The notes: generated from the letters alone by a model not told the origin. Positions 26,155-63,777 are shown, counted from the stretch's first letter. The stretch is DNA of 64,000 bases from Candidatus Latescibacterota bacterium (GCA_965217865.1 CBDCJO010000002.1:704001-768000), one strand, 5' to 3'. Numbers and translations: made by a program.

Positions 26155-27438
26155 CTATTTCTTTAAGAATACGCGCCCTGCATGACCCGGCACAGGCAAT
26201 CGAACGACTCCGTTTTCCACGGCGTACTTCTTTCCGTCCAGGAAGTCCCTCACGGCACAGTTTCGAAATGATTTCGGACAGGAGGCCTTGACCGTCGCCG
26301 GGCGGGCCCTCCCGTTTATGGCAATGATACCCCCCTCGAACGTGGCGTAATCGATCGACCCGGCGCTCTTCAAATCGGTCAACCGGCGGCCCAGGTCCAA
26401 CCGCCGGACGGCCGCACACTTGGATCCTTTGCCTGTGCCGTAGTCGGACCACAGATAGCCGCACAGGCGGGCGGCTGCGTAAGCGAAAAGGGCATCCTCA
26501 ACGACAGATCCTTCGGTACGCCCCAGGTAACTCAGGGCAAAGATCCTCCCCCCGTTCCGATGGAGAGCTTCCCATCTCTTCGATCCGCGTTTGACTTCAG
26601 GCCAGTCGTGTCTCCTGCCCGGCCAAGCCCAGGAAAAGATGAAGGATTCGAGCATCCCGGCGTCGGCATGCTCGGAAAAAGTGGCGCCGTTGACCACCAC
26701 CACCTTGTCCGGTCCGTAAGATCTGACCGTTCGCCGGACCTTCTCCAGCAATTTCAAAAAAGCGTAATCGTGGTCCTGGTCCGGATAGATATGCTTGTGC
26801 CGCGGGAGTTCCAGAATCGACGGGTCCAGGATGGCCGTCGACTTTTTACCCCCCCCGTGATGAGGATTGATTTCATCGGCCTCACTCTGGCGGACCCGAC
26901 CCTCTAATCCGGGCACGGAAGTGCAGACCATCCGGTACTTTTTCGAATAGCCCACGCGCACCCCGTCCCCGAAGCAAGGCATTCGATGATCGGCGTTGTC
27001 CACGAAGATGCCATCCGCGCCTTGTTGCATCTGTCGGTGAACCATCGCCAGGGCCATATCCACGTATTCCTTCGTGTTGTTGCACGCGAGGTACCGCCAC
27101 ATCCGCCAGGTATCGTCCATCGGCGTGTTGACAAATCGGTTGTCCTTGTCGAGCAGAAGGATCTGAGGGCGTTTGGGGTCCCAATCGACCCGCCCCGTCC
27201 AATATTCATATCCTGTTCTGTGCACAAAGGTGTCGTAGAATGAAAGGTAAGACAGTCCGCGCGATCCCACGGAATGGAGCTGTTTTAACGCTTTTCCCAA
27301 CTGGACGTTGATCAACAGCGGGATCCCTTCGTACTTCTTTCGGGCGGCGCCTTTTACGGCAGACCATGCGTATGCCCCGTGTTCGGACCACGATGAAAAC
27401 GTTGCCGTAGTTTTTAGCCAGGCGGGTGTGTTTTTCAT
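26155..27438 (-). CDS. Hypothetical protein, putative glycoside hydrolase-like TIM barrel
   Basis: 427 aa; GADGIFVDNA, KVVVVNG, GMLESF and a short beta-sandwich-like C-terminus; family uncertain. Confidence 0.55.
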   Translation of the reverse strand: MKNTPAWLKTTATFSSWSEHGAYAWSAVKGAARKKYEGIPLLINVQLGKALKQLHSVGSRGLSYLSFYDTFVHRTGYEYWTGRVDWDPKRPQILLLDKDNRFVNTPMDDTWRMWRYLACNNTKEYVDMALAMVHRQMQQGADGIFVDNADHRMPCFGDGVRVGYSKKYRMVCTSVPGLEGRVRQSEADEINPHHGGGKKSTAILDPSILELPRHKHIYPDQDHDYAFLKLLEKVRRTVRSYGPDKVVVVNGATFSEHADAGMLESFIFSWAWPGRRHDWPEVKRGSKRWEALHRNGGRIFALSYLGRTEGSVVEDALFAYAAARLCGYLWSDYGTGKGSKCAAVRRLDLGRRLTDLKSAGSIDYATFEGGIIAINGRARPATVKASCPKSFRNCAVRDFLDGKKYAVENGVVRLPVPGHAGRVFLKK

Positions 27439-27517
27439 CTTCTCTCCCCGACCCGTTGCGGGCCGTCTCGGGTTAACGATAACTCAGGGAATTACGACGA
27501 ATTTTCCGGGTGATCGA

Positions 27518-28567
27518 TCAAACCGGGAGTCGAAGCCGTTCCCACTTTTTCTGAAATCCAGCCCTTTCGAAAATTTCGGAGTTCACTGCCCCGTCCGGTC
27601 TTTTTCCAGAACAGAGATCGACCATCGCCTGGCTTGCCATCCGTCCTGCATCCCGGAACAGTTCGTGAGTCCAGCCTATGCAATGAGGGGCAAGCAGCAC
27701 GTTCTCAAGCTCTCCGAAGCGATGGGGACTGGTAATCGGCTCCCCGACCAGGCAATCCAGGGCGGCCCCCGCGATCCGTTTGTTCTTCAGGGCGGCGAAA
27801 AGCGCGTCTTCATCCACGATTCCGCCCCTTGCCGTATTGATCAGATAGGCATCCGGTTTCATGAGGGAGATCTCGGAGGGGCCGATGAGATTTGTCGTTT
27901 TTTCATTAAGCGGACAATGGATGGACACGAAATCGGCTGAGGACATCAACTCGTGAAGCTCGACGGACTTCACACCGAGCTGTCGGCCTTTGTCCTCGTC
28001 GAAAAACGGATCATAGGCGATTGGGGTGTCCATCCCGAATCCATGGAGAAGCTCGATCGTGGTCCCGCCGATGCCCCCAAAACCAACCACCCCCAACGTT
28101 CGGTCCCGTAATTCGCAACCCATGTAATCGGATCGAATGTCCCATTGGCCTGCTCGAACCAGCGCGTCCTTTGTGCGCACGTGATGCGTGAGCGCCAGCA
28201 TCCATCCGATGGTCGCTTCCGCCATCGGTCGGTCCACGGCGCCGGAGGTGATCGTCAACAGCACATCGGCCTCGGTACAGGCCTTCACCTCGACCTGGTC
28301 ATAGCCCACACCCATCCGCCCAATGGCCAGCAGATCGTCGCTCTTTGACAGGGAGGCGGTGGTGACCTTCATGCCCCCGATGATCAGGGCGTTGAACGAT
28401 CCAACCTGGTCCGGCCCGAGTTCAGGCCGATTTTCGGCCAGCCGGCCGGTAGAGATTTGGGGGTGTTCCTCCAGCACCTCCAATCCCATCTCTGGAAAAA
28501 TGGATTTCCCATCGGGCTTCAGGATATCGGCCGAATAGGCCACCTTGAAAGGTGGTCGTCCGTTCAT
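27518..28567 (-). CDS. D-isomer-specific 2-hydroxyacid dehydrogenase (SerA-like)
   Basis: GVGYD, GVVGFGGIG, HCPL, INTARG, LAPH. Confidence 0.92.
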   Translation of the reverse strand: MNGRPPFKVAYSADILKPDGKSIFPEMGLEVLEEHPQISTGRLAENRPELGPDQVGSFNALIIGGMKVTTASLSKSDDLLAIGRMGVGYDQVEVKACTEADVLLTITSGAVDRPMAEATIGWMLALTHHVRTKDALVRAGQWDIRSDYMGCELRDRTLGVVGFGGIGGTTIELLHGFGMDTPIAYDPFFDEDKGRQLGVKSVELHELMSSADFVSIHCPLNEKTTNLIGPSEISLMKPDAYLINTARGGIVDEDALFAALKNKRIAGAALDCLVGEPITSPHRFGELENVLLAPHCIGWTHELFRDAGRMASQAMVDLCSGKRPDGAVNSEIFERAGFQKKWERLRLPV

Positions 28568-28700
28568 TCATTCCCTTGAAGAGAGAAACTATCGAATATG
28601 GTGTTGGGAATACCGGGTACGGGGAATGCGATAGGAATTCAATCGGGGAACTTGCCTTGCTTCATCCCACCCCTCAAGTCAGAGAATATGCCGATGGGGA

Positions 28701-29627
28701 TCACGCCTCTCCCACGATCTGTTCAACGATGTTCAGACCGACCCGCTCGCTCCATCTATCGATCAGTCTCCGGAACAACGGTCCCATCGGCACCCCGTCT
28801 CCGATCTCGATGCCGTTGATCTTCGTGACAGGGGCCATGCAGTAGGGCGTTGTGGGAAGAAAGGCCTCATCCGCGTTGATCACATCGTGTACCTGAATAT
28901 CCCGCTCAAGGAACGGAATGTCCATCTCACCGCACAGCTCACGGATGGTCTGCAGGCTTATTCCGGGAAGGATATTCCGCGGCGGCGGGGAGATCACGGT
29001 TCCATCCTTCGCGATCAGGAAGTTCGATCCTGATGTCTCGGCCACGTTCCCGTCAAGATCCAGGACAAGCGGTATCGCACGGGGATCGACCAGTTCCGAC
29101 TCCTTCGAGGCCAGCCACCAGTGCATGCGGCTCCGGCATTTCATCTTCGGATCCGTGCATTGGGGTGGAATGTGCCGGATCGACGGGGTCACCACGTGTA
29201 CCCCCTCGGTGAAGTAGGCGCGCCAGAGCTCGAACGGCAACCGAAAGGTATGCATGCAAAACGTGGGAGTATCCTTCTTCAACCCCCCGGCCCCGCCCGC
29301 ATAAGTGGTGAACAATCCCGGGGTGATGAAATAGACGAGCGCCAGCTCCTCCGCCTCTCCGATCAGTCCTCCGTTATGCTCGATCAGACGTCGGGAGATC
29401 TTCATCGTCTCTTCCACCGATATGACCGGAAGGATCCGGGCATACTTGCACGACCGGTAGAACCTGGCGGCGTGATCCTCCAGTCGATAGGGCTGCTTCC
29501 TAAAGGTCCGTATCAGGTCCGTCACCGTAGCCCCCATGACGATCCCCGCATCGAAAATCTCTAGATGCGCCTCCGAGGCCGGAAGGAGTTCGCCGCTCAG
29601 GTAGACCAGGGGTTCATTGGAGCCCAT
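28701..29627 (-). CDS. Class IV PLP aminotransferase (IlvE/D-amino acid transaminase-like)
   Basis: IRTF, LEDHAARFYRS, KCRSR, ETSGSN, ILPGIS, ADEAF. Confidence 0.9.
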   Translation of the reverse strand: MGSNEPLVYLSGELLPASEAHLEIFDAGIVMGATVTDLIRTFRKQPYRLEDHAARFYRSCKYARILPVISVEETMKISRRLIEHNGGLIGEAEELALVYFITPGLFTTYAGGAGGLKKDTPTFCMHTFRLPFELWRAYFTEGVHVVTPSIRHIPPQCTDPKMKCRSRMHWWLASKESELVDPRAIPLVLDLDGNVAETSGSNFLIAKDGTVISPPPRNILPGISLQTIRELCGEMDIPFLERDIQVHDVINADEAFLPTTPYCMAPVTKINGIEIGDGVPMGPLFRRLIDRWSERVGLNIVEQIVGEA

Positions 29628-30079: not shown

Positions 30080-32494
30080 TTAAAATATCAACGGTGAAAC
30101 GGATTTGTGAATCAGCGCGATGCCGATAGAGATCATGGCCATCAGCGCCATGCCTGATGAGAACCCGACGGAAAGCACCACGGCGTACAACCGCCATTGC
30201 TTCTTGCCATACTTGTTCCAGAAATAGAACCGCGCCAAAAGCGCTCCGATGATCGACGGGAGGACGAAGTGGGGCATCGTCGTCAGGCTCTGAGCGTAAC
30301 CGAACACAAGAAGCGTCGGAAGGCCGAAGATTCCGGAAATGATGAAAATCCCCAGCCCCACCGCCAGTCCCACCAGGCCAACGTCCCACTTGAGCGCCTC
30401 CAACAACAGGGGCTTATCATCCGAGGTCTGCCGCATCCGGCTCTGGAACGTCGGCTCCGTGTCCACCTCCACGAAAATCAGATCCTCGTCGATCCCCTCC
30501 GGAACGCTGATCGCCAGATTGGGAGTCGGCGTTCCAACGATCTCCCCCCGCGACGGCAAAATCAGGCCGGGGGCGACAAGGCCGGCAAGAGCCGTTCCCT
30601 CCGTCTCGGGAGGAGGAGACGCCCGATGCAGCTCGACCTCCTTCAGGAACCTCTCGGCTTCGGATGCGGGCGTCTCACCCTGAGGGCTTTCCCCGAACCG
30701 GGTTTCAAACATCCCCACCTCAGACCATTCGCCGCGATTCCCCGCCTCATCCTTCAGGCATGCCCGCCAGTACCACCGCTCTCCGTCGGGCAGGTTGGCA
30801 GGCCGCCACGAGGCTTTCTCTCCCTCTACCTCCGTCTCCCCCCGCAGGGTGGAGCTAAACCAGAGGCATTGCTGGTAGGCCTGCAGCCGCCACATCGTCT
30901 GCGCATAGGGATAGGTGGCGGATGGGATCGGCGCCATCTGCCAGAGATACTGCCAGTAGAGAAAGCTGGTCAGGAGGACGACCGGCACCATGAAGACCTC
31001 GGCCTTCAGGATACTCGTGAACTTCGTCCCCGTCAGTTCGATCTCCCGGAACTTCTGAGCCTGCCCCCCGTAGTTGTGGAGAGCGAACGGCACGAACCAG
31101 ACCTCCACGCCCCGGTACCCGCTCAGCAAAATGGCCCCCTCCTGGACGAAAGGGATCGACAGAGACTGTCCCACCATCCCGATCAACCGGGCGTTGACGA
31201 ACGACATGAAAGGCGTGAAGATGAACCCGAAGAAGACGAAGTAGAGGAAGGGAAACCCGGGGAGCATCCAACGGGCGATGCCGATCGTCGCGATCGTCAT
31301 CAGGGAGAACAGCCCGAGCAGGAGCGGAATCGAAAAATCCCCCCGCCCTTCCGGAAGGCTTGCCTTCATAACCCCCGTGCCCGAACCCTTCATCTCGCTC
31401 CGCCGTTTTTTCGTCCCCACATAGACCTGGTAAAAACCGACGAAAGCGATGGCGAAGGTGACGCCGATCGAGAAACTCATCCAGAAGTCCACGTTGTTGA
31501 TGAAGTAGGTCTCGATCGACCCCATCCCGAGCTGCCACCTGGGCAGGAGGCCGTTTGCGTGCAGGATCGGGCAGGCCGCGACGTAGGTGAGCGATCCTGC
31601 GACCGCCCCCACGATCCCCCAGAACGGCGCGAGCAGACCCGCGATGATGATCCCGAGGTGGAACGAGAGGCCCAGGGGCGTCGCCGGAAGCACGTAACCC
31701 GAATCGTGGGTGAAGTCCGCGAACGGAATCGGGAAGATCATCACCGGCTCGGCAAGCATCGCCCCGGTGATCGCCGGCACCCCCACATAGAGCGCCCCGA
31801 ACCCCGCCCCGATCATCACCCCCGTGCTGAACATCCGCCACCGCCAGGTCTCCTGGCCCGAGCTGCTGTCGGCGAGGGCGAGCGCCCCCTGCGCGTTGAT
31901 CGGGGCGAACGGAAACGGCAGCCGCTCGTGGTCGGAGGTAAGCCGGAACAGGGAATAGCCGATCGTAAACCAGGACACCCGGCCGATCACCATACCGGCG
32001 ATCAGAAGGCCGATCGGAAGCAGCCAGTCGCTGTGTATAAACGTCCGCTTCACCAGCGCCTCAGAGCCCAGCGGCGGGGCGACCCAATGGGGGATTAAGT
32101 GTGAGATCCCGAACTGCCGCGCGGCCTCCGACTGGACGAGATACTGGTTCCAGAGCAGTCCCTGGAAGGTCCCCGTCTCAGCCGCAATAAGAGACGCCGC
32201 CACATAGAAGAGTACGTAGATCTCCTGCCTGGAGAGCGTCGTGAACGAACGTCTCGCGATCTCGATAAACAGGATGATCGTCACCCATTCCGCCGCCGCC
32301 CCGAGAGACCCCCCGGTCATCAGCGACAGGTACATGTTCCCCGGCACCATCACCACCGAGATAAAAATCACGCCGAGGATCGTCCTGAGCGTGAACCCCT
32401 CCCCGAATGACTTCGGCACCTCCATCAGGGAGCGGTATTCTTCGATCTCCGCATTCGGGTTGCGGACTTTCTTCGGATCTTTTTCAGGCGGCAT
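30080..32494 (-). CDS. OPT-like (oligopeptide transporter superfamily) membrane protein with an inserted FN3-like domain
   Basis: GFTLRTILG, AAEWVTIILF, SRQE and ERLPFPFAP motifs; many TM helices. Confidence 0.7.
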   Translation of the reverse strand: MPPEKDPKKVRNPNAEIEEYRSLMEVPKSFGEGFTLRTILGVIFISVVMVPGNMYLSLMTGGSLGAAAEWVTIILFIEIARRSFTTLSRQEIYVLFYVAASLIAAETGTFQGLLWNQYLVQSEAARQFGISHLIPHWVAPPLGSEALVKRTFIHSDWLLPIGLLIAGMVIGRVSWFTIGYSLFRLTSDHERLPFPFAPINAQGALALADSSSGQETWRWRMFSTGVMIGAGFGALYVGVPAITGAMLAEPVMIFPIPFADFTHDSGYVLPATPLGLSFHLGIIIAGLLAPFWGIVGAVAGSLTYVAACPILHANGLLPRWQLGMGSIETYFINNVDFWMSFSIGVTFAIAFVGFYQVYVGTKKRRSEMKGSGTGVMKASLPEGRGDFSIPLLLGLFSLMTIATIGIARWMLPGFPFLYFVFFGFIFTPFMSFVNARLIGMVGQSLSIPFVQEGAILLSGYRGVEVWFVPFALHNYGGQAQKFREIELTGTKFTSILKAEVFMVPVVLLTSFLYWQYLWQMAPIPSATYPYAQTMWRLQAYQQCLWFSSTLRGETEVEGEKASWRPANLPDGERWYWRACLKDEAGNRGEWSEVGMFETRFGESPQGETPASEAERFLKEVELHRASPPPETEGTALAGLVAPGLILPSRGEIVGTPTPNLAISVPEGIDEDLIFVEVDTEPTFQSRMRQTSDDKPLLLEALKWDVGLVGLAVGLGIFIISGIFGLPTLLVFGYAQSLTTMPHFVLPSIIGALLARFYFWNKYGKKQWRLYAVVLSVGFSSGMALMAMISIGIALIHKSVSPLIF

Positions 32495-32553: not shown

Positions 32554-35500
32554 TTAATCTGCTGTTTCCAACGAATCTGCTTTGGCGTATTCGTCCCTGA
32601 CCTGGTCCGACAGGGTCCGCCAGATCAAAAACTGCTTGCGAAGAAGCGTCAAAAACTGCCGGTTCGTCCGGATCCAGGCCTGCAACTCTCCGCTCATCCG
32701 ATCCAACACCGTCTCGATCTCGTATATCCCATAACGACCCGTCGGCATCGCACGCAACACCGTCTCCTGGCTCACACCCATGTCGAACGGCGCAAGCCAC
32801 GTCTGCATTTGGATCGTATAAGACGGACCCTCCGGCGTCTCCTCCTCCCGGAAGCTCACACCCTCCGCGTAAAACTCCCCCAGCGAATAGCGGCTGTAAG
32901 CACGGAAATAGGTCGCCAAAAACGAAAACATACCCCGCACATCTCGACTCGAAACCGTAAACGGAAACTCGAACCGCCAGTGGTCTCCCTCCGGATCCGA
33001 CAACTCCCAACGGCGCATCACATCCGGAACCGCCATCTGTGAGGCCTTCTTCGAGGGATAAAGCGTCGAAAGCATCACCACACTCATCACCAGGCCCATC
33101 GCCATCACCGCAGACAACGACGAGTAGTTCAACGACAGCCCCTGCAACAATCCCGACTCGAAAAGAACCCGACCCACACCCTGTGCCACCAGATACCCCC
33201 CAACCGCTCCGATCACCGCATACACGCACGACTCCGCCATAAACAACATCCCGATGTGGGACGGCGCCAAGCCCACCGCCGAGTAGACCCCGATGTCCCG
33301 AAAACGCTCATACACGGCACCCATCATCGTGTTCAACACGATCAAGGCCGCAATCGCGATCGGAATCAGCAAAATCCCCAAACCCGATACAGACGTCATG
33401 CCGTGAGAGCTGAAGACAAACACCTCCGAAGGGCCGGACTCCTGCGGAATACTGCCGAACACCGTCAACTCCAGGCGCGATACGAAACTCTCAACCACCT
33501 TCCCAACGTCAACGCCTTCATCGAAACCTACGGCGATGGAACGAAGGTCACCCGTCCCTCCCCACCAGTTTCCGGTGCCCCCCATCTCCCGCATCATATG
33601 ATACGGCAGGAACAACACACGGCCCGGGTTCAGGTGCTTGTAGACGTGGATCCCCACCGTCGATCCCGCAGTCCGGCCGGACTGCTGCTGTGCGGCCCGC
33701 TGAGAAGTCGCTCCCTGCTGAAGCTGCTCCGCAAGCACATCCTCTGGAACCACCCCGAAGTCGACCGGCGTCAACGGCGCGCCGTCAAGATCCTCCAATC
33801 CCTTCAACCGCTCCGAATCCATGATCCCCACCACCGCAAGCTCTCGACCGAACACCCGAACCGTCGACCGGCCAACATCCTCCCCCGTGAGACCAAGATC
33901 TCCTGCCATGCTGTCCGGTATCACGCACTCCGCGTTCCCCGCGATCCAGCGACCCGAAGAAAGACAACTGTCGATCCCCGTGATCAATCGCTCCTCCGGA
34001 ACCATACCCACAACAGACGCCGCCTCTACGGACCGACCCCCCCCCTGGATCTTCGTCGCCTTCGTATACCACGCACGGGGAACGACCCGCCCGACGTCCC
34101 GAAACTCATCCGACGTATACTCCAATACCGAGTCGTCAAGCTCCTTCCAGGCCCCGTCCCGGATCATTGCACCCGCCCGGAACGGACCCTCTGTCCAGGG
34201 GATACGCATGTGACGAAGCATGAACTTCAACGACGTGAACGACATCACCGTGAACGTCAACAACAAGACCGTCACCAACGTCAAACTCGTCCGGAGCTTC
34301 CGACGACGCATGTTCGAAATCCCCAGCATAAACGCCACATAAAACGCACTCCCCCGCCCGATGTCCGTCCCGTGAGCCACCGCAGCATCCGTCCGCAACG
34401 CGCGCATCTGTGCGCTGAATCGGGAGGAAATCACCTTCAACACGAGCGTCGCAAGTGCGAGTATCAAAAACGCGACCAGCACAAGAGCCGGATTTGCGAG
34501 AGAAAAAGCAGGATGAACAACGCTCAGGCAAAACCACACAAAAAAGAAAAACCCGAAGAAACCCGCGATCTGCTTCCGGATGTCCGCAAACGCGAACACC
34601 AGACGCTCCGCGAAAAATGAACACGGGATCAGCATCGCCATGAAGAATACCACCCCGTGAATCACGTCGTTCTGTGTCCCCTTCACATCCGGATACGCCC
34701 GCGCCTCAGCCCCCTGAGCCGCTCTGGCGTTCTGGATAAATCCGCTCCACCGGCGTTCCTTCAACGCTTCCTCCGCCTCCCTCAGATGGCCCCCCGCCTT
34801 GTCGTGAAGCGCCGTCAAACGGGTGTTCTCGATCCCGTAGGACAGAAGCTCACGGATCCGGCCGTCGTCGACTCGCCACATGTCACGCGCAGCCTTGTAC
34901 GCCGTCTGCACGAACGCTGACGGAACCTCCGTCAGGAAACCCGCGCCATCACCCCCCTCGGGGTCCGCATTGACCAGGAGAAACCGCACGCCGAACAGAC
35001 CCGTCGAAAGCGTCAGCTTCACACGTTTGCCCGGCTCCGTAAATACCACACCCATCGTCGGCTCCTCCTCACGGTATTCCGGCCTGGCCGTTTCGAAAAA
35101 ATAACCGTAGTGAGCCGGGATCGAATTCCCCGCGTCCATGATCACGATGTCCGAAAGCCGCCCGAGCTGTCGGGGGTCCACCGTCTCGTAGAACGACGTC
35201 GGCACGCACCGGAACAGCACCACAAGCGGCTTCGTAATCGCCCGGCTTATGCGCGCGGAGATCGGATAGATATCCCCACCCCGGTCCGGAGCGGACATGA
35301 TGTCCCCCGACTCCGGGTCGAGCATAAAGGGATGCACCTCCATTTCGTACTCCCGGAACAGCCGGGTCACGCTGAACTCCCCGTTTTCGTCCGCGACCTC
35401 GATATAATCCCCGCGAACCCCTTTGTGGACCTTCGACTCACGGCCTGAACGGAGAACAACCACAGCCCCACCCATCTTGATGTCCGGGATGATGGCATAA

Positions 35501-55684: not shown

Positions 55685-55721
55685 CCTGTATAATATATAC
55701 AGGGCACTCAGGCCTTGTCAA
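55685..55721 (-). promoter_or_regulatory. Sigma70-type promoter with overlapping palindromic operator
   Basis: TTGACA-N18-TATATT; palindrome CCTGTATA-ATA-TATACAGG at 55685-55703. Confidence 0.65.
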
Positions 55722-55750
55722 GCTTTTTTCTCTGGAAAAGCCTGCTTTTT

Positions 55751-57094
55751 TTATAAACCAACTATTCTCGCCCCAGTATAATTCGAACGGGTGGTTCGCC
55801 CCAGGGATTCCTTCGGGTCGAGTTTCAGGGCGTGTCGGAGTTCCGACATCCCCTCTTCCTTTCGACCTCCGGCCAGCAGCGCCAGCCCCAGCTCCCGGTG
55901 TGCAGCGGCCCGATCCGCATCCAGGAGAACCGCCCGCCTCCCGGCGTCCTGGGCGGAATCAATCCGGCCCAGCCGGCGATAGACACCGGCGAGGAGCACC
56001 CACGTCTCGAGCGTCCCCGGGTCGAGCTCCGCCGCCCTCTGAAGCGATCGCATCGCCTCCACGGTCATTCCCACCGTAAAGAAGGCCGCCCCCAGATTGT
56101 GGTGCGCCGGTGCCATAACCGGATCCAGATGGATCGCCTCCTTGAACGCTGCGACGGCTTCGATATGCCTGCCGTATTGCGTGTTCAACACCCCGAGATT
56201 GTAAAGGAATGTCGCCCGATCTGAGATGTGCTCCGGATCTTCGGGGCTCTGCCGGATACCCTGACGGAAGGTCCTGGCCTGGCTCTGGTATGCGCTCAGG
56301 GACTCGAAGCGTTTCAGCGTTTGCCTGCCCGCTTCGGTCCGCCCCAGCCGCGTATAGGCGTTGCCAAGGCCGAAGAGCGCCTGCGTGTCTTCCGGATCGA
56401 GGTCCAGGGTCCGCTCGTAGGCCGTCGCGGCCTCCTCGAGACGGGCCAGCTGCAGAAAAAGGTCCCCCATGCCGCGATGGACTTCAGGTGAATCCGGGGC
56501 CAGCGTGACAGCCCGCTCATAGGCGGCGACGGCCGCGTCCCACTTCTGGATCTGGGTTAAGGCCCCGGCCAGCTCCCTCTGGGCGCGGCCATCCTCCGGT
56601 TCCAGCTCGGCCGCCCTTTGAAGGCTTTGCACCGCCTCCTCGTTCGCACCCAGAGCCATAAGCGCCATACCCAGGCTGTAGTGAAGCGGGGCCGCCTTCG
56701 GCAGGACGGAGATCCCCTTCCGAAAGACATCGGCCGCATCCTCATAACGGTTCGCCTGAACGCATACCGATCCCAGACTGACGTAAGCGGGGATCGATTC
56801 GGGCTGAAGCTCGACGACCCGGTTGAACGCATCGATGGCTTGATCGAGCCGATTGAGGCTCCGGTAGTAGGTCCCAAGATGATAGTGCGCCCCGACGAGA
56901 GAGGGGTCGAGGTCGATTGCCTTGCGGAAGGCCGTTGCGGCCGAGTCCATATTTCCGGAAGCGACCAGGGCAATTCCTTCCCGGAACCGGTTGACGGCTT
57001 CCTGTGATGGGGACGGTTCAAGGGCCTTTCCGGTTACAGGCAGGGATACCGTCAAGATAGTCAAGATTATTATAATGTTGGAGTTAGTTATCAT
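55751..57094 (-). CDS. Secreted TPR protein
   Basis: Signal MITNSNIIIILTILTVSL; about 11 34-aa TPRs. Confidence 0.85.
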   Translation of the reverse strand: MITNSNIIIILTILTVSLPVTGKALEPSPSQEAVNRFREGIALVASGNMDSAATAFRKAIDLDPSLVGAHYHLGTYYRSLNRLDQAIDAFNRVVELQPESIPAYVSLGSVCVQANRYEDAADVFRKGISVLPKAAPLHYSLGMALMALGANEEAVQSLQRAAELEPEDGRAQRELAGALTQIQKWDAAVAAYERAVTLAPDSPEVHRGMGDLFLQLARLEEAATAYERTLDLDPEDTQALFGLGNAYTRLGRTEAGRQTLKRFESLSAYQSQARTFRQGIRQSPEDPEHISDRATFLYNLGVLNTQYGRHIEAVAAFKEAIHLDPVMAPAHHNLGAAFFTVGMTVEAMRSLQRAAELDPGTLETWVLLAGVYRRLGRIDSAQDAGRRAVLLDADRAAAHRELGLALLAGGRKEEGMSELRHALKLDPKESLGRTTRSNYTGARIVGL

Positions 57095-57203
57095 TATAGA
57101 ATCCGTGATTCGTGATCGGAGAAGCCGGGGATCGTGATTTGTGACTCGTGATTCGGGGATCGGAGAACCCCGGATTTCAAGGTCTGGATATCCCCTTGGA
57201 TTC

Positions 57204-57312
57204 TGTGGGACCCGACTCCAGTCGGGGAATAAGGTCATTAGCAAACAGATGGTCCCTGGTAAAGGGATCCTGGCCCTCCAGAGCCAGTTCCCGGTCTGGA
57301 GACCGGTCCCAC
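57204..57312. repeat. REP-like inverted doublet
   Basis: GTGGGACCCGACTCCAGTCGGG ... CCGGTCTGGAGACCGGTCCCAC. Confidence 0.65.
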
Positions 57313-57480
57313 AACAACCTCTTTTGGCCACATAAAGCCAGGGATTTTAGGTTCTGGACTCATCCATTAGATTTATGGGACCCTGCTCCTTCAGTCGCCT
57401 TACGCCCCTTCAATAATTAGGTGATTGAGTAGATATTGGCACCAGCGTATTTTAATAATATTATATCCTGTATACCGGAA

Positions 57481-60276
57481 TCAAACAAAAAAATACCATA
57501 CAAGGGAGACGATCATCCCTGAGCCAAAGGTTAAAAACACCGTGATGCGCGTCCTTTCTCTCCCCCACCTGACAACCCATCCGGGACGGATCAATCCTGC
57601 AATTAACCCGACTGAGGAAACAAAAAACAGGAGGGTGGAAAAACCTGCGATCTCCAGGACCCGCTCATCCGTTTCCTCTTTTTCGGTTTTCCCCGTACGG
57701 AGTCTCATTCTTTTCAGCTCCGGCCCCGGTTTTACCTGCTGCTTCAATGCTTCATATCTTTCCCGTATGGCCACTACTTTGGGATGGTCCTCTCCCAGGG
57801 CCTTTTCTACGATTCCAAGTGCCCGTTTCTGAATGGGTTCCGCTCTGGCAACCTGACCCTGAACTCTGTGGATTTCCCCTAGGTCGTTCAGGGCGGTCCC
57901 GACATCGGGATGGTCCGGTCCAAGGGCCCTTTCTACTAGGATCAGCGATTGATTTAAAAGCGACTCCGCTTCTCCATATTTAGCCTGGGAGTAGTAAACC
58001 CCCGCCAGGTTGGTAAGGGATCTCGACACCGATTGGGGATCCGATTCCCGATTCTTCATCCTTATGTCCAGGGCCCTTTTAAAAAGCTGCTCGGCATCTT
58101 GCAACTTTCCAATCGCTTTATATAACGCCCCCAGATTGCTCAGAGAGGTGGCCACGGTCGGATGATCCTCGCCAAGGGCCTTCTCTTCTATAGATATGGC
58201 CCTCCGGAAAAGAGAGCCGGCTTCCGAATATTCCCCCCGGGTATAATGAAGGGTGGCAAGATTGTTCAGGGAGGTTGCGACTGCGGGATGGTCCGGCCCC
58301 AGAGCCTTCTCCGCGACTTTTAGGGACCGTCTTATCAGAGACTCCGCCTCGGAATACGCGCCTTTTGCGTAATATAGCGAGAGAAGATTGCTCATGGCGG
58401 TCGTCACGTGGGCGTGGCCGGGGCCAAGGGACTTCTCCGCGATGTCCAGGGACCTCCGGAAAAGCGGCTCTGCCTCAGCATAATTTCCCTGTTTAAAATA
58501 GAGCTGCCCCAGGTTGTTCAGCACCCCCCCTACATCCGGATGTTCAGCACCCAGGGCCTTTTTCCTGATGGTCCCCGCCCTCTGGTACAGGGTTACCGCC
58601 TTCGAATAGTCCCCCTGCGAGTCATAAACTTCGGCCAGGTTGTTCAAGGAGTTCGCCACGTGGAGATGATCGGGCCCGAGGGCCTTCTCCCGAATGGCCA
58701 GTGCACGCTCCAAATGGCTTTCGGCTTTCGAATAGTGTCCCTGTTCTTTATAAAGCCCCCCCAGGTTGTTCAGGGCGGTCGCCACATCGAGATGGTGCGG
58801 GCCAAGGGCTTTCTCAGCGATCGCCAATGACCGCACGTAAAGCGGCTCGACCTTCGAGTACTGTCCCCGGGTTCCATAAAGCTCTCCAAGGTTGTTCAGG
58901 CGGGCAACGATATCGGGATGTTCCGGACCAAAAGCCTTCTCAGCGATGGCCAGGGACCTGATGTAAAACCCCTCCGCTTCAGAATACTGATTCCGGGTGA
59001 AGTAAAGTCCCCCAAGATTATCCAGGGCAGTCGCAAGATCGGGATGCTCGGGCCCAAATGCCTTTTCCCAAATCGTCAGCGCTCGCTTTAAATGAGACTC
59101 TCCCCGGGTATATTCGCCGCGGGCGATGAAAAGTTCCCCAAGATCGTTTAGCGAAGCCGCAACCGAAGGATGCCCTGATCCCAGGGATTTCTCGTTTATG
59201 GCCAGCGACCGCTCGTAAAGTAACTCCGCCTCATCATTACGACCCTGAGAAACGTAAAGCCACGCGATATTGCCCAGGGAGGCCCCCACATCGGGATGAT
59301 CCTTTCCCATGGCCTCTTCACGTATGGCCAGCGACCGTCTGTAAAGCGACTCCGCCTCATCATAGTTGCCCCTGGAGCCGTGAAGGTTTCCCAGGCTGTT
59401 CAGCGCGGAAGCGACCGACGGATGGTTCGATCCCATCGCTTTCTCGGCAGTGGCCAGCGATCTCCGGTAAAGCGGCTCAGCCTCGTCATACAGGCCCCGG
59501 GAATAATAAACGCTCGCCAGATTGTTCATGGCCCTCGCGACTGAGACATCTTCCGATCCAAAGGCCTTTTCCATGATGATCAATGCGCGCTTGTAAAGCG
59601 GCTCCACCTTCGAATATTGCCCCAGGGATTTATAAATTTCGGCCAGGCTGTTCAGGGCTCTACCCACATAGGGATGGTCAAGTCCGTGCACCTTCTCGGA
59701 GATGCTCAACGACCGCTTGACAAGGGGCTCGGCTTCTTGATACCGGCCCTGGTTAATATAAAGCTCTACCAGGTTGTTCAGCGAAGTGACAAGAGAAGGA
59801 TGCACGTCCCCCAATAGCTTTTCCCGGCTTGCGAGCACCCGTTTGAAAATCGGCTCGGCCTCGCCGTAACGGCCCTGGGACGTATAAATTTCCCCCAGGT
59901 TGTTCAGGGCGGCGGCGACAAACGAATGGTCGGGCCCGAGGACCTTTTCCAGGATATTCAGCGCACGCTTGATCACGGGCTCGGCCTCGGAATACCGGCC
60001 CTGGATTATGTAAAGCTCCCCCAGGTCGTTCAGGGCGCCCCCTACGTTGGGATGCTCGGGACCGAAAGTCTCCTCGGATCGCTTCACGGCGTCCTCGGCA
60101 ACCCAGGTCCTTCTTTTATATTGACCCTCCTCTTCCTGACCCTCAGGTTCAGGGGATTCCGCTTCTATGGACCGAATGAACCCTTCCCCTCCGGACCCAT
60201 CCCATACGACAGACCACAAAAACAGGAGAGCTATCCCGCAGAAGGCGATTTTAATCTTTTTCCGAAAACGGTTCAC
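57481..60276 (-). CDS. Kinesin-light-chain-type TPR protein with C-terminal TM segments
   Basis: About 18 42-aa repeats LGPDHPxVAxxLNNL; N-terminal hydrophobic segment; two C-terminal hydrophobic helices. Confidence 0.9.
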   Translation of the reverse strand: MNRFRKKIKIAFCGIALLFLWSVVWDGSGGEGFIRSIEAESPEPEGQEEEGQYKRRTWVAEDAVKRSEETFGPEHPNVGGALNDLGELYIIQGRYSEAEPVIKRALNILEKVLGPDHSFVAAALNNLGEIYTSQGRYGEAEPIFKRVLASREKLLGDVHPSLVTSLNNLVELYINQGRYQEAEPLVKRSLSISEKVHGLDHPYVGRALNSLAEIYKSLGQYSKVEPLYKRALIIMEKAFGSEDVSVARAMNNLASVYYSRGLYDEAEPLYRRSLATAEKAMGSNHPSVASALNSLGNLHGSRGNYDEAESLYRRSLAIREEAMGKDHPDVGASLGNIAWLYVSQGRNDEAELLYERSLAINEKSLGSGHPSVAASLNDLGELFIARGEYTRGESHLKRALTIWEKAFGPEHPDLATALDNLGGLYFTRNQYSEAEGFYIRSLAIAEKAFGPEHPDIVARLNNLGELYGTRGQYSKVEPLYVRSLAIAEKALGPHHLDVATALNNLGGLYKEQGHYSKAESHLERALAIREKALGPDHLHVANSLNNLAEVYDSQGDYSKAVTLYQRAGTIRKKALGAEHPDVGGVLNNLGQLYFKQGNYAEAEPLFRRSLDIAEKSLGPGHAHVTTAMSNLLSLYYAKGAYSEAESLIRRSLKVAEKALGPDHPAVATSLNNLATLHYTRGEYSEAGSLFRRAISIEEKALGEDHPTVATSLSNLGALYKAIGKLQDAEQLFKRALDIRMKNRESDPQSVSRSLTNLAGVYYSQAKYGEAESLLNQSLILVERALGPDHPDVGTALNDLGEIHRVQGQVARAEPIQKRALGIVEKALGEDHPKVVAIRERYEALKQQVKPGPELKRMRLRTGKTEKEETDERVLEIAGFSTLLFFVSSVGLIAGLIRPGWVVRWGRERTRITVFLTFGSGMIVSLVWYFFV

Positions 60277-60303
60277 TTTCGAACTCCAGAATGGGAAAGA
60301 ACA

Positions 60304-60808
60304 CCCCTCCCCCGGCCCCTCCCCGAAACGGGGAGGGAGATTATGTGCTTTAAGTTTCGTTAAAATAGAGTGTTATATTCATTCTATTTGGGGAAGCAAC
60401 GTCACCGGCGGGTAAGAACGCTTGATATATCCTTCCTTATCTCTTCATTTTTTATTCTTAAAATTCGCAAACCTCTTCCAGTCAAAATCCGGGATCGTTC
60501 GAGATCATATTCGGCTTGCTCTTCGTGAATCGGGCCATCAACTTCCACAACCAGACCAGCCTTATGACAATAAAAATCTACGATGAATCCGTCAATTACC
60601 TGCTGACGACGGAAATGGAAGTCCCCAAACCGGTTGGCGCGAAGTTGGTCCCGTAGAATACTTTCTTCCTTTGTCATTTCTCTGCGAAGTTCTCTTGAAC
60701 GCTGAACTTTCGTCCTCTCCACCTTCTGCCCGATGACAATATTTTTGCCGACATTGAATAAAAGCCTTAGCCCCCTTCCTGTTTCGGGAAGGGGGTTTGG
60801 GGGTTAGG
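60304..60808. mobile_element. Palindrome-flanked DUF559 element
   Basis: CCCCTCCCCCGGCCCCTCCCCGAAACGGGGAGGG and CCCCCTTCC...GGAAGGGGGTTTGGGGGTTAGG flank the gene. Confidence 0.6.
60402..60754 (-). CDS. DUF559 (Vsr-like) endonuclease, probable -1 frameshift near start
   Basis: RELRREMT...FRRQQVIDGFIVDFYCHKAGLVVEVDGPIH...YDLER. KNIVIGQKV is in frame upstream; ATG 60754 is out of frame by one A. Confidence 0.85.
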
Positions 60809-60847
60809 TTTGACCCTCGGTGGAATTTTATATGTCCGTCACAACTA

Positions 60848-62006
60848 TCACTCAGGACGCTTGAAAATAAAATATCCCTTCTCCGTCTCCACGACCCGGC
60901 TGACCTGCCCGGGCTCCAGACCCTTCACGATTTCCGAAACCGGAGGATCTAAATCCGTGGGGAGGACAAAACCGATGTCATGCCCCGGGAAGGCTTCCCC
61001 ACTCTCCACGCGTGCGATCAGGGCTTCGCCTTCTGCCTGCGATAAGACGACGGCCATCGTCAGCCGGATTTTGCCCGCTTTGTGCGCCTCCACCTCAGCA
61101 TGCTGCTTTCCTTCCACGTCCGCAAGCGCATATTGAAGGGCCTTTACGTGCGGATGGGCCGGCTCGAGCGCCTTCCTCACGATTTCCAAGGCCCGCCTGT
61201 AGAGAGGCACAGCCTCCGCATAACGGCCCTGCATCCGATAGAGGTCCGCCAGGTTGTTCAGGGACCTCGCCACGTAGGGATGGGCCGGTCCCATACCCTT
61301 CTCCACGATGCCCAGGGCACGCTTGAGGAGAGGCTCGACCTCACCATATCGGCCCTGAGCCCGGTAAATGCCCCGCAAGGTTCCCGATAGAGACCGCCAC
61401 GGTGGGATGGTCCGGTCCAAGACCCTTCTCGAGGATCTCAAGGGCTCGTTTGTAGAGTCGTTCCACCTCCCCGTGCTGGCCCCGGTCTCTGTAAAGTCCC
61501 GCCAGGTTGTTCAGGGACCTCGCCAGGGTGGGATGGTCGTCTCCCCGAGACTTCTCCAGGATGCCAATGGCTCGTTTGTAGAGTCGCTCGACCTCCTCGT
61601 GCTTCTGGCCCCGGTGCCTGTAAATCTCCCCCAGGTTGTTCAGGGCGGCGGCGACAAATGCATGGTCGGGCCCGAGGACCTTCTCCAGGATATTCAACGC
61701 CCGCTTGACCAGGGGTTCGGCTTCGGAATACCGGCCCTGGACCATGTAAAGGTCCGCCAGGACATTCAGGGCGCCCCCTACGTTGGCATGGTCTGGGCCT
61801 AAAGTCTCCTCGGATCGCTTAACGGCCTCCTCCGCAACCTGGATCCTTCTTTTAAAGTGCTCCTCCCGACCCCCAAGTTCAGGGGATTCCGCTTCTATGG
61901 ACTGAATGAACCTTTCCCCCCCGGACCGATCCCATTCGATAGACCATAATAAGAGGAGAGCCATACCATAGATAGCGATTTCAATCTTTTGGAGAAAACG
62001 GTTCAC
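60848..62006 (-). CDS. KLC-type TPR protein with C-terminal degenerate parvulin-like domain; +1 frameshift at ~61367
   Basis: CATTTACC versus CATTACC in the paralog joins ORFs 61341..62093 and 60848..61441; GTG start 62006. Confidence 0.82.
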
Positions 62007-62059
62007 TTTCGAACTCCAACAAAAGAACGTGAAGCGTGTCTCGTGAAGCGTGAAGCGGT

Positions 62060-62195
62060 CGATAGGGGCACGATGCATCGTGCCTCTACGCAAATTTTGT
62101 CAGCCCACTCGATTCCCGATTGGGGCGAGGCGATGCCTCGCTCGTGATTCGTCCAGATCCCATCGAAGGGCGAGCACATCGGGTCACCCGACGCA
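62060..62195. repeat. Composite REP-like palindrome cluster, copy C
   Basis: TAGGGGCACGATGCATCGTGCCTCTAC...GTGATTCGTCCAGATCCCATCGAAGGGCG. Confidence 0.78.
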
Positions 62196-62223
62196 TAATC
62201 TTGATGTCTCCATTTTTCATTTT

Positions 62224-63777
62224 TCATTTTCTTCCCCCTTGCCGCTTTCCCTCCACGTCCCCAAGGGCATGTTGAATGGCCTTTACCTGCGGATGGTCCG
62301 GACCCAGGGTCTTTTCATGTATCGCAAGGGCCCGCCTGAAGAGAGGCTCAGCTTCTCCGTATCGACCCTGCGCCAGGTAATGCCCCGCCAGATTGCCCAG
62401 AGAGATCGCCACGGTGGGATGGTCCGGGCCCAGGGACTTCTCGAGGATTTCAAGGGCTCGGTTGAAGAGTCGTTCCACCTCCGCGTGCTGGCCCCGGTCC
62501 TTGTAAAGTCCCGCAAGGTTGTTCAGCGCGGCCGCCACACCCGAATGTTCAGGCCCGAGGGCTTTCTCCCTGATCGCCAGGGCCCGTTTGTATCGTGCCT
62601 CAGCTTTATCGTACTTTCCCTGGGTCCTGTAGAGTTCCGCCAGGTTGTTCAGGGCCGTCGCCACGTGTGGATGTTCCGGGCCAAGACCCTTCCTCACGAT
62701 CTCCAGAGCCCGCTTGTAGAGCGGCTCAGCCTCCGCATAACGACCCTGCATCCGATAGAGGTCCGCCAGGTTGTTCAGGGACCTCGCCACGTGAGGATGG
62801 TCCGGTCCCATACCCTTCTCCACGATGCCCAGGGACCGCCTGAGGAGAGGCTCGACCTCCCCATATCGTCCCTGGGCCCGGTAATGCCCCGCAAGGTTTC
62901 CGAGGGTGATGGCCACTGTGGGATGGTTCGGTCCCATACCCTTCTCGAGGATTTCAAGGGCTCGGTTGTAGAGTCGTTCCACCTCCGCGTGCTGGCCCCG
63001 GTCTCTATAAAGTCCCGCCAGGTTGTTCAGGGCCGTCGCCACGTGGGGATGGCCCTGTCCAAGACCCGCCTTCACGATCTCCAGGGCCCGTTTGTAGAGA
63101 GGCTCGGCTTCATCATAACGGCCCTGGGTCCTGTAAAGTTCGGCCAGGTTGTTCAGGGGCCTCGCCAGGGTGGGATGATCGTCCCCCCGGGCCTTCTCCA
63201 GGATGGCAATAGCCCTTTTGTAGAGTCGTTCGACCTCCCCGTGCCGATCCTGGTCCCTGTAAACTTCCGCCAGGTAGTCCATTGCCTTCGCCACAACGGG
63301 ATGATCAGGCCCCAGGGCTTTCTCTCTGATGGCCAGGACTCGTTTGTATAGGGACTCCGCCTCATCATACTTACCCTGGGTCCTGTAGAGGTCCGCCAGG
63401 TTCTTCAAGGCCGTCCCCACTTGGGGATGGTCGGGCCCGAGGACCTTTTCCAGAATATTCAGCGCGCGCTTGATCAGGGACTCGGCCTCAGAATACCGCC
63501 CCTGGATCGTGTAAAGCTCCGCCAGATTGTTCAGGGCGGACCCTACGTTGGGATGGTTGGGGCCAAAAGTCTCCTCAGATGTCCTCAAAGCCTCTTCGGC
63601 TTCCTGGATCTTCTTTTTAAATTGCTCCCACTTTTCCCCACCCCCCAGTTCAGGGGTTTCCGCTTCTATGGATCGAATGAACCATTCTCCCCCGGACCCA
63701 TCCCATACGATGGACCACAAAAACAGGAGCGCGATACCGCAGAAAGCGATTTTAATCTTTTGGAGAAAACGGTTCAC
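62224..63777 (-). CDS. KLC-type TPR protein
   Basis: About 10 42-aa repeats; N-terminus shared with the two downstream paralogs. Confidence 0.9.
   Translation of the reverse strand: MNRFLQKIKIAFCGIALLFLWSIVWDGSGGEWFIRSIEAETPELGGGEKWEQFKKKIQEAEEALRTSEETFGPNHPNVGSALNNLAELYTIQGRYSEAESLIKRALNILEKVLGPDHPQVGTALKNLADLYRTQGKYDEAESLYKRVLAIREKALGPDHPVVAKAMDYLAEVYRDQDRHGEVERLYKRAIAILEKARGDDHPTLARPLNNLAELYRTQGRYDEAEPLYKRALEIVKAGLGQGHPHVATALNNLAGLYRDRGQHAEVERLYNRALEILEKGMGPNHPTVAITLGNLAGHYRAQGRYGEVEPLLRRSLGIVEKGMGPDHPHVARSLNNLADLYRMQGRYAEAEPLYKRALEIVRKGLGPEHPHVATALNNLAELYRTQGKYDKAEARYKRALAIREKALGPEHSGVAAALNNLAGLYKDRGQHAEVERLFNRALEILEKSLGPDHPTVAISLGNLAGHYLAQGRYGEAEPLFRRALAIHEKTLGPDHPQVKAIQHALGDVEGKRQGGRK

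Follow-up and report, generated by a model that had tools for sequence, protein, structure and literature searches.

A co-oriented gene patchwork in a Candidatus Latescibacterota genome contains a conserved triad of TonB-dependent receptor, CTD-protein and PorV-type barrel genes

The region described here is a 38-kb stretch (26155-63777) of a Candidatus Latescibacterota genome, numbered from the start of the window, the whole 64-kb stretch of DNA that was analysed. All of its main genes lie on the minus strand, as an earlier note on this DNA had claimed, within a co-oriented run of 20 called genes and about 42 kb that extends past the window and is bounded on its left by lepA on the plus strand (23910-25823). 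The run is long, not unique, because by rough gene calls it ranks 5th of 1164 on the contig, where six runs reach 37.6 kb. Family matches uphold the labels previously given to the TPR proteins, the TonB-dependent receptor (TBDR), the TPR-rotamase, the two FG-GAP/ASPIC (CRTAC1-like) proteins, the two M28+MacB_PCD+FtsX proteins, the class IV aminotransferase, the 2-hydroxyacid dehydrogenase and the PorV/PorQ barrel. The region strings together gene blocks that were inherited separately, and it contains gaps of 400-570 bp with repeat elements. Its five blocks have different histories: a lineage-specific TPR array; the TBDR/CTD-protein/PorV-barrel triad, which has a promoter-like site and a terminator of its own; TPR and CRTAC1 genes with counterparts in glycan-degradation islands of two relatives; two M28-FtsX genes with an OPT-like gene and an aminotransferase; and the dehydrogenase with a weakly GH-like gene.

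The triad spans 7.3 kb (48160-55418), all on the minus strand. Its first gene (52005-55418) encodes the TBDR (PF13715/PF07715/PF00593), with an N-terminal carboxypeptidase-regulatory-like domain, plug and barrel, and with orthologues of 45-47% identity in the relatives G001 and G002. Assignment of this receptor to the SusC family was rejected, as it scored 66 bits with TIGR04056 against a cut-off of 368 in a match confined to the N-terminal region. The second gene (49285-51840) encodes the triad partner, 846 aa from the ATG at 51825, laid out as a signal peptide, a beta-supersandwich-like domain of about 600 aa, an FN3 domain and a variant T9SS-type CTD ending LVIVR. The third (48160-49251), separated from it by 33 bp, encodes a PorV/PorQ-family beta-barrel (NF033709, 130 bits against a cut-off of 90), the family profile of which matches PorV (6h3i_F) at E 4e-23.

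Upstream of the receptor gene, a sigma-70-like promoter (55692-55721, minus strand; TTGACA-18-TATATT) is proposed by consensus match only; it agrees with 11 of 12 consensus positions and is the top-scoring site within 44-64 kb. Over its -10 box lies a perfect 8-3-8 inverted repeat (55685-55703), a candidate operator for the triad only. This palindrome is single in the window even when up to 3 mismatches are allowed (0.06 copies expected), has no second perfect copy in the genome and, when sought before the other sub-operons, was not repeated there. The triad ends in an intrinsic-terminator-like hairpin (48086-48133, minus strand) with a T tail. Its 19-bp stem (48133-48093), with 12 GC pairs, and the following T run substantiate the terminator claimed earlier, and the associated claim of several transcription units is right as well.

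The gene order of the triad is a fixed inherited unit. In relatives, the PorV-type gene directly follows the partner gene in 27 of 29 loci, the remaining two stopping at contig ends, and a TBDR precedes the partner in 29 of 31 matches, the remaining two lying near contig starts. The same holds in a metagenome locus set that includes some near-duplicates: the family tail is present in 63 of 80 fetched loci, with PorV next in 60 of these 63, and among loci L117-L177 (n=61) a TBDR lies upstream in 44, while the other 17 extend no further than 1.13 kb upstream. Of 29 metagenome triads, 15 have a GH, lyase-like or deacetylase gene among the first downstream genes scanned (GH9 in 8, YdjC in 4), and these neighbours belong for the most part to a distant triad clade. 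The nearest orthologues are surrounded by BNR, PcRGLX, GH9, sulfatase, PhyH and GntR genes. The 64-kb window itself holds no firm CAZyme, its GH114/GHL15-like gene being sub-threshold and 20 kb from the triad. RNA contigs from four sponge metatranscriptome runs leave no bin uncovered between 48003 and about 55655; many of the pieces are at least 99% alike, and one spans the PorV/partner junction. They are assembled contigs of a single study that was chosen with this stretch, in which strand, level and transcript ends are not resolvable and DNA carry-over is possible.

The genes flanking the triad are also all on the minus strand. A TPR protein with 34-aa repeats (55751-57331) has its orthologue after the TPR-parvulin gene in G001 and G002. 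The TPR-parvulin itself (46243-47748), a family match to a TPR protein with a C-terminal rotamase-like domain, has orthologues of 58-59% identity in glycan-degradation islands of the same two genomes. Then follow two FG-GAP/ASPIC-UnbV proteins (43779-45668 and 41902-43755), tandem paralogues of 56% identity, the first with an orthologue after two TPR genes in G001. These TPR and CRTAC1 genes probably remain from a glycan-degradation island, the enzymes of which are absent from the window. At the right end stands a tandem array of TPR genes with 42-aa repeats at 126-nt spacing (57481-63777), comprising 57481-60276, 60848-62093 (frameshifted), 62224-63777 and another copy just past the window; the frameshifted member and an interposed DUF559 gene (60402-60722) were missing from the earlier note. 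A paralogue on contig C1 is 79-81% identical, and two same-family genomes gave no match to the array at E<=1e-60. At the left end stands a D-2-hydroxyacid dehydrogenase (27518-28567; family match), whose best relatives, in the genomes checked, lie apart from the OPT and triad loci. The neighbouring protein without a hydrophobic N-terminus (26155-27438) does show the GH resemblance that had been claimed, here to GH114/GHL15, but more weakly (E about 1e-3, below cut-off), and its gene has no close homologue among 40 relatives.

The remaining block, likewise on the minus strand, contains two fusions of PA/M28-like, MacB_PCD and FtsX parts (PF02687, PF12704), copy 2 at 37225-41751 and copy 1 at 32554-37083, which are 95-100% identical over aa 701-1500 and 59-91% over aa 1-700; a near-identical, frameshifted third copy lies at C2:2.30 Mb. 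The FtsX and MacB-like periplasmic domains match profiles of MacB, YtrF, LolF and LolC, and the PA + M28 architecture matches PA-domain M28 aminopeptidases (E 1e-15). The canonical M28 Zn/catalytic set (His, Asp, Glu-Glu, Asp, His) was found in none of the 11 aligned copies, in which HxD is replaced by YxD, EE by GH, AH or GAH, and the last His by D or another non-His residue. The pseudo-peptidase domain probably serves as a substrate-binding ectodomain. No cognate ATPase lies in the window; in G038 a LolD/MacB-type ATPase flanks the system, and its closest homologue here (75%), at C2:823.1 kb, together with a PqqD-like pair on C1, may provide the partners. The next gene (30080-32494) encodes a polytopic membrane protein of 804 aa that belongs to an unnamed family and has an Ig-like insert. 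Its OPT-like label, an automatic name only, is weaker than had been stated: no OPT Pfam (PF03169) matched at E<=0.1, nor did a PDB sequence search return a match, and hhalign against DUF6785 gave a probability of 8% (E 0.004), one DUF6785 protein in turn matching PF03169 at 4e-8. This gene directly follows M28-FtsX in 18 of 19 relative loci, and DUF6785/6784 are the usual partners of M28-FtsX. A class IV aminotransferase (28701-29627; family match) comes after the OPT-like gene in both same-family genomes at 74-75% identity. The best explanation of the M28-FtsX and OPT-like genes is that they belong, as its membrane core, to a separate, split and unstudied inner-membrane system.

In line with the earlier note, no SusD-family match was found among the window proteins, and PF07980 gave none across the whole genome, with a positive B. 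thetaiotaomicron control. By this profile SusD is absent genome-wide, as expected outside Bacteroidota, and the phylum Latescibacterota is mostly without it. In 21 of 21 genomes SprA (PF14349) scores above cut-off, in frames of about 2,100 aa; TIGR03517 (GldM) matched in 0 of 21, in a search run without a positive control. The claimed CTD is present in the partner as a predicted T9SS CTD fold, and its PorV/PorQ barrel neighbour is as in T9SS cargo/barrel pairs, but the CTD is a variant under the TIGR04183 cut-off: this type A profile reached at best 16 bits against 23, in two of nine family members scanned, and did not match the window partner, which carries neither curated CTD sequence signature, type A or type B.

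Structurally, an AF2 model of the partner built on a 70-sequence alignment reached pLDDT 73 and pTM 0.79, with 166 of 846 residues under pLDDT 50. Residues of about 25-640 resemble, in model comparison, the N-terminal beta-supersandwich domains of GH94, GH65, GH15 and GH116 enzymes (top match 5nz7: Z 11.6, rmsd 4.6, 265 aligned), and the main domain is predicted to be a glycoside-phosphorylase-like beta-supersandwich. Residues 639-737 match an FN3 fold, a domain also detected through 3mpc (E 8.6e-14), and residues 735-846 align to the PorZ CTD (5m11, 680-776; Z 10.4, rmsd 2.7 A, 88 aligned), PorZ 686-758 also being matched by profile at E 0.006. Identity to the fold matches is 4-13%, and predicted matches at Z 10-12 indicate a common fold, not a function. 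The window partner has no lipobox, and a lipobox-like motif occurs in one of 70 family members. D330 is invariant in 70 of 70 sequences, and D194, D314 and D611 are kept in at least 90%.

We favour, at a probability of about two in three, the reading in which at least five gene blocks form a co-oriented patchwork, the conserved functional core of which, the triad, likely imports oligosaccharides, with an SprA-exported, PorV-held surface partner replacing the lipid-anchored SusD. The three genes, inherited as one unit, would be transcribed between the promoter-like site and the terminator. The partner, which starts with a Sec-type leader, has no lipobox and ends in a predicted PorZ-like CTD, would leave via the translocon of the SprA that the genome encodes, and its CTD may remain on the cognate barrel, by analogy with PorZ/PorQ and type B CTD/PorP-SprF pairs. 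Its beta-supersandwich domain would bind a glycan and pass it to the TBDR, as fold and gene neighbourhood suggest, so that the triad would likely act like a SusC/D pair with a T9SS-exported, barrel-held lid.

Like the SusC/SusD (RagA/RagB) loci of Bacteroidota, the triad joins a TBDR with an N-terminal extension to a large secreted partner, and triads of relatives often stand among glycan enzymes. It differs in its Latescibacterota host, in a TBDR far under the SusC cut-off and in the extra PorV-type barrel gene. SusD is a TPR-containing helical lipoprotein (PMC13543919), unlike the triad partner, which is predicted to be beta-rich, with FN3 and CTD and no lipobox. As in the PorZ/PorQ, PorU/PorV and type B CTD with PorP/SprF pairs of the T9SS, a CTD protein gene lies beside a PorV-like barrel gene, and the partner tail shares the PorZ CTD fold in the predicted model. 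A CTD protein beside a PorV-like barrel has been proposed to stay anchored uncleaved, in a review that also restricts CTD proteins to Bacteroidota (PMC10202324). Unlike those pairs, the triad is always TBDR-coupled and lies outside Bacteroidota; its tail, under the type A cut-off, has its own consensus ending, and the uncontrolled search detected no GldM. Gammaproteobacteria (Xanthomonas, marine Gammaproteobacteria) are already known to take up glycosides by TonB-dependent transport without SusD (PMC13543919, section 13), and that section mentions neither a CTD partner nor a PorV-type barrel at such loci. PUL prediction takes the SusC/D pair as its hallmark (PMC13543919), so SusD-less glycan-uptake loci of FCB-group phyla go uncounted. 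The TBDR/CTD-protein/PorV order is a searchable signature, and the partners, an unannotated family of 700-850 aa, become testable substrate-capture proteins. T9SS-type tails, cognate barrels and SprA are thereby placed outside Bacteroidota, which raises the question of what powers export.

The M28-FtsX proteins resemble type VII ABC systems (MacB, LolCDE, FtsEX, YtrEF) in their C-terminal MacB_PCD and FtsX permease, and differ in the fused 500-aa PA/M28-like ectodomain, in extra membrane helices, in the pairing with an OPT-like protein and, usually, DUF6785/6784 and in the lack of an ATPase at the locus. They share PA + M28 with aminopeptidases (2ek8, YwaD) and with inactive relatives (transferrin receptor, nicalin), and differ in the replaced first His, Glu-Glu pair and last His of all 11 aligned copies. 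Our literature search found no description of the triad or the M28-FtsX system. Put more boldly and more tentatively, the triad might be a second outer-membrane importer of the 'pedal-bin' type, built independently, a TBDR with a T9SS-exported, non-lipidated, glycan-binding lid on a private PorV barrel served by a reduced SprA/PorV-type T9SS outside Bacteroidota, and with a matching DUF6785/pseudo-M28-FtsX/OPT-like inner-membrane importer with interchangeable binding ectodomains it might make up a complete, undescribed Latescibacterota polymer-uptake route active in sponge holobionts.

The earlier note had taken the whole 38 kb as one utilisation locus, with TPR/CRTAC1 proteins as periplasmic relays. 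On such a reading the triad would import a substrate, the TPR/CRTAC1 proteins would pass it on, M28-FtsX/OPT would transport it over the inner membrane, and aminotransferase and dehydrogenase would break it down. The long co-oriented run would fit, as would the chemically sensible pairing of an aminotransferase with an adjoining 2-hydroxyacid dehydrogenase. Some linkage between blocks is also seen: the triad, TPR-parvulin and 55751 TPR orthologues share one G002 contig, 15 kb apart; two TPR genes and a CRTAC1 gene adjoin in G001; DUF6785 genes lie beside several triads and follow or adjoin them in G001 and G002; the OPT-like gene and aminotransferase stay together in both same-family genomes; and two f4 genomes carry a distant TBDR and, 21-23 kb from it, a divergently oriented FtsX/OPT paralogue. 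Against this, linkage in relatives, the loss of which the note itself had named as refuting, is largely missing: 62-1388 kb separate the triad from the M28-FtsX/OPT module in nine of nine closed family-f3 genomes (the two same-family genomes, in 290 and 590 contigs, limited long-range synteny tests). Distributions differ as well, the OPT-like gene occurring in 41 of 41 genomes and close triad homologues in 18 of 41; in G001 the M28-FtsX orthologue has no CRTAC1 gene upstream, and the dehydrogenase and GH-like gene are not syntenic. With the unique operator, the internal terminator and the repeat-bearing gaps, these results make a single locus improbable, and the 38-kb claim should not be carried forward. 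What survives is a SusD-independent, PUL-like uptake design confined to the 7.3-kb triad. The suggested peptide or glycopeptide substrate is weakened too, because the M28 domains are without the canonical Zn ligands and catalytic Glu, and the genes around triads point to glycans.

A somewhat less remote alternative, still unlikely, accepts the triad but has the partner act at the surface as an enzyme or adhesin, or has the TBDR import a non-glycan ligand such as a peptide, cofactor or metal complex. The beta-supersandwich fold does occur in catalytic proteins, one of them the matched GH174 fucanase 9k1g (Z 9.3), the conserved D330, D194, D314 and D611 could be catalytic or metal-binding, and a firm CAZyme is missing from the window. 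On the other side, the best fold matches are non-catalytic N-terminal domains of their enzymes, the model lacks the catalytic helical barrel of those enzymes, and the strict order with a TBDR and the glycan enzymes beside 15 of 29 triads argue against this alternative. Least probable of all is an origin by misassembly for the tandem M28-FtsX copies and the frameshifted TPR gene. The 9.3% contamination estimate, the frameshifted third copy and the 99-100% identity of the M28-FtsX copies over long stretches would suit it, yet the copies diverge across their whole N-terminal half and have different ends, which a collapsed or duplicated assembly would not produce. Such an artefact would leave the triad unaffected.

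In this study, the minus-strand genes between 26 and 64 kb came out as probably separable blocks rather than one unit. The earlier note had proposed a single 38-kb PUL-like locus without SusD, and its gene list and strand assignment were right. The minus-strand run begins past lepA (EF-4; 23910-25823, plus strand), its left boundary, and extends about 4 kb past the window; minus-strand ORFs at 24324-25355 and 25401-25910 were rejected as genes, being antisense shadows of lepA. The window, C2:704001-768000, has no tRNA or Rfam match. At 42 kb and 20 genes, the run ranks fifth among 1164 runs on contig C2 (genome of 6.43 Mb in contigs C1 and C2, 96% complete, 9.3% contamination), where six reach at least 37.6 kb by the same rough dicodon gene caller. 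Since such a length is not exceptional on C2, co-orientation alone is no proof of one locus.

The absence of SusD was also borne out, PF07980 being unmatched across the whole genome; across the class it occurs in 13 of 41 genomes, as a single short match in each. The closest named homologues of the 804-aa OPT-like membrane protein are from Ca. Latescibacterota/Latescibacteria or Handelsmanbacteria, with a few from Gemmatimonadetes, and its Atlas cluster is for the most part Latescibacterota. As the host lies outside Bacteroidota, SusD is no longer expected. By both the SusC and the SusD test, the locus is no Bacteroidota PUL. TBDT glycan loci without SusD are already known in Gammaproteobacteria (PMC13543919).

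The proposal of one 38-kb locus is not supported by the relatives. Close homologues of the CTD-bearing partner, the middle gene of a triad of TonB receptor (TBDR, 52005-55418), partner (49285-51840) and PorV-family barrel (48160-49251), occur in 18 of 41 genomes (family f1 2/2, f3 15/16, f2 0/19, f4 0/3, plus this genome), and the OPT-like family in 41 of 41. Nine f3 genomes consist of one or two contigs; in these, a triad lies 62, 164, 250, 308, 333, 509, 539, 1275 and 1388 kb from the nearest OPT-like gene among the matches listed, by coordinate subtraction, as against 17 kb in the window. Some findings point the other way. In two f4 genomes of one genus, a distant TBDR and an FtsX/OPT paralogue lie 21-23 kb apart on opposite strands. 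In two same-family genomes, G001 and G002, both too fragmented for a 38-kb synteny test, DUF6785 immediately follows the triad on one contig (G001:C210) and lies near triads on two others (G001:C37, G002:C153). A functional tie between triads and the DUF6785/M28-FtsX/OPT family is plausible.

The triad itself is a well-conserved arrangement. Of 29 relative loci, 27 have PorV directly after the partner, and 29 of 31 matches have a TBDR before it, the exceptions to both being at contig ends. Of 184 stretches confirmed in the metagenome scan, the best 80 were kept; the family tail is found in 63 of these, with PorV next in 60, while 17 loci with FN3-only matches were left out of the counts and some counted loci are near-duplicates. 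A TBDR is upstream in 44 of 61 metagenome loci (L117-L177), the others extending no more than 1.13 kb upstream, and several loci show an extra gap of 1.4-2 kb between TBDR and partner. The barrel scores above the NF033709 cut-off and its family profile matches PorV (6h3i); the barrel alone, as a single sequence, had no PDB match. The genome holds 27 TBDR-barrel matches and six PorV-family loci, of which this one alone has the order TBDR-partner-PorV in our scan. PorV-family genes at C2:1255833-1260006 and C1:345367-348910 adjoin proteins with CTD-like tails, without a TBDR.

The triad (48160-55418) is flanked by a sigma-70-like site matching at 11 of 12 positions, overlapped by a palindrome (55685-55703), and by a strong terminator. 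Recurrence of this putative operator before the other sub-operons, a check proposed in the note, was not found: it is present once in the window, ahead of no other gene there, and genome-wide there is no second perfect copy and two sites have two mismatches. RNA runs that share 36-48% of the words sampled from 46-56 kb derive from sponge metagenomes, and four sponge RNA libraries from one study gave contigs over all bins between 48003 and about 55655, one of them spanning the barrel/partner junction. This shows that the triad is present in RNA libraries and implies neither transcript structure nor level. At 24-48 and 56-64 kb these four runs gave short or low-depth pieces only, with any depth in 13-18 and 8-10 of 30 bins, respectively; this low cover was set aside as evidence because 46001-56000 had guided the choice of runs, genes cannot be ranked from contigs, and the strains may not share the same gene content. 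A more divergent strain's RNA contigs depart from the reference at 55655 into other upstream sequence, which also has a TTGACA hexamer, and the upstream context of the triad may differ between strains.

Among 18 distant members of the partner family scanned, none matched Pfam at E<=1e-5. The family's C-terminus has a hydrophobic strand followed by R/K in 70 of 70 sequences, and a lipobox-like motif is seen in one of 70. An AlphaFold model from 70 sequences reached pLDDT 73 and pTM 0.79 (single-sequence pLDDT 33). At the N-terminus, this model matches beta-supersandwich domains that occupy the same end of cellodextrin, cellobionate, chitobiose and kojibiose phosphorylases and of GH116 and GH15 enzymes (Z of 9-11.6, rmsd of 3.7-5.6, 4-13% identity); FN3 and a tail superposing on the PorZ CTD follow. 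Foldseek returned matches to the FN3/CTD region only; the wide fold search listed 50 rows without a SusD entry, an absence that excludes nothing. Against representative proteins, FN3 repeats dominate, with at least eight of 150 listed rows matching beyond FN3, and word-seeded homologue searches returned six proteins each. SprA was found in 21 of 21 genomes searched and GldM in none of the 21, in a search without positive control, possibly indicating a reduced T9SS outside Bacteroidota. The SprA-like gene (C2:1355978-1362184) is single in each of the 21 class members.

For substrate, 72 downstream ORFs were listed for 30 metagenome triads and 54 from 29 loci were scanned, those dropped being from one duplicate locus and otherwise mostly antisense. 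A GH, lyase-like or deacetylase gene lies downstream of 15 of the 29 triads: GH9 in eight loci, YdjC in four, PIG-L and GH42 in two each, and GH18, GHL10, GH38 and a pectate-lyase-like gene once each. A distant triad clade (L141-L169) repeatedly has GH9, YdjC, PIG-L, GH42, GH18 and GNAT genes downstream. This set suggests chito-oligosaccharides, and what we take to be chito-oligosaccharide utilisation loci. Around the closest orthologues, by contrast, the neighbours are BNR, PcRGLX and sulfatase genes, which may indicate acidic or sulfated glycans.

The triad orthologue of G002 is surrounded by PcRGLX, enolase-like, GntR, sulfatase and DUF6785 genes and lies 15 kb upstream, on one contig, of orthologues of the neighbouring TPR/CRTAC1 block. 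These have the order TPR-parvulin, TPR in G002 and TPR-parvulin, TPR (orthologue of the gene at 55751), CRTAC1 in G001, in both amid PhyH, GH9 and BNR genes; in G002, CRTAC1 has its best orthologue at a separate site, adjoining a threonyl-tRNA synthetase gene. The stretch at 41.9-57.3 kb is probably what rearrangement has left of such a glycan-gene island, without its enzymes. The TPR array (57481-63777 plus one copy outside the window, with 42-aa repeats) has no match at E<=1e-60 in G001 and G002, a match in one of five genomes tested, and a paralogue (79-81%) on C1 amid unrelated genes. In sponge Latescibacterota, TPRs predominate among the eukaryote-like repeats (PMC12993501).

At the other end, the OPT-like gene directly follows M28-FtsX in 18 of 19 relative loci fetched, and is followed by a hypothetical gene and PqqD pair in 15 and by an aminotransferase in two, both from same-family genomes. 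The M28-FtsX/OPT-like/aminotransferase block stands before lepA and guaA in G002 too, and is therefore a resident of this chromosomal site. In G001 and G002, DUF6785/6784 comes after the aminotransferase, a place held in the window by the dehydrogenase and GH-like genes, which have no synteny in the relatives checked. REP-like short palindromes (25966-25999, 26060-26087, 41842-41871, 48021-48048 and 60762-60800) recur in intergenic gaps, frequently at block borders.

The N-terminus of the M28-FtsX profile matches transferrin receptor, nicalin and PA-containing M28 aminopeptidases (2ek8, E 1e-15), and its C-terminus MacB/YtrF/Lol permeases; a single-sequence PDB search with the M28 region gave no match. 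In all 11 copies aligned, the first Zn-binding His is Tyr, the Glu-Glu pair is Gly/Ala-His and the last His is absent, making peptidase activity unlikely; judged from these residues, the domain would have a binding role. Between the two tandem copies, identity is 95-100% over residues 701-1500 and 59-91% over 1-700, a pattern that would fit a diversifying ectodomain and a homogenised membrane part. Three near-identical copies, two at 32554-41751 and one at C2:2299037-2303538, share the membrane half and differ in the ectodomain; the last is frameshifted, and gene conversion or long-read indels are possible. In total, the genome has five M28-FtsX genes (one frameshifted), two OPT-like genes (OPT-like being a tentative label for the 804-aa protein) and 18 DUF6785 matches. 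The latter, several of which lie within long co-oriented islands (e.g. C2:1.51-1.56 Mb), mark an unstudied membrane family that has expanded greatly. The likely ATPase and the hypothetical and PqqD pair are unlinked to the M28-FtsX/OPT-like genes here.

Cargo is proposed to be anchored on a cognate barrel in PorZ/PorQ and in type B CTD/PorP-SprF (PMC10202324). The open-access papers searched contained no description of TBDT uptake fixedly coupled to a cargo/cognate-barrel pair or of a DUF6785/DUF6784 (PF20581/PF20580)/M28-FtsX system. Searches for T9SS, SprA or PorV with Calditrich, Marinimicrobia or Ignavibacteri gave nothing relevant by title or abstract, and those for Latescibacter with SusD, PUL and TonB no description. 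The triad is a novel combination of known parts, with a proposed mechanism that is specific and testable.

Elsewhere in the window, a stretch of lower GC (1661-4609) encodes a Dam-like methyltransferase, a NOV_C protein and a helicase C-terminal fragment and is a possible defence-island remnant, two IS3-family transposases adjoin a split, truncated beta-propeller histidine kinase gene (9079-14750), and a DUF1854 gene (15421-15969) has a 96%-identical copy at C2:95.6 kb.
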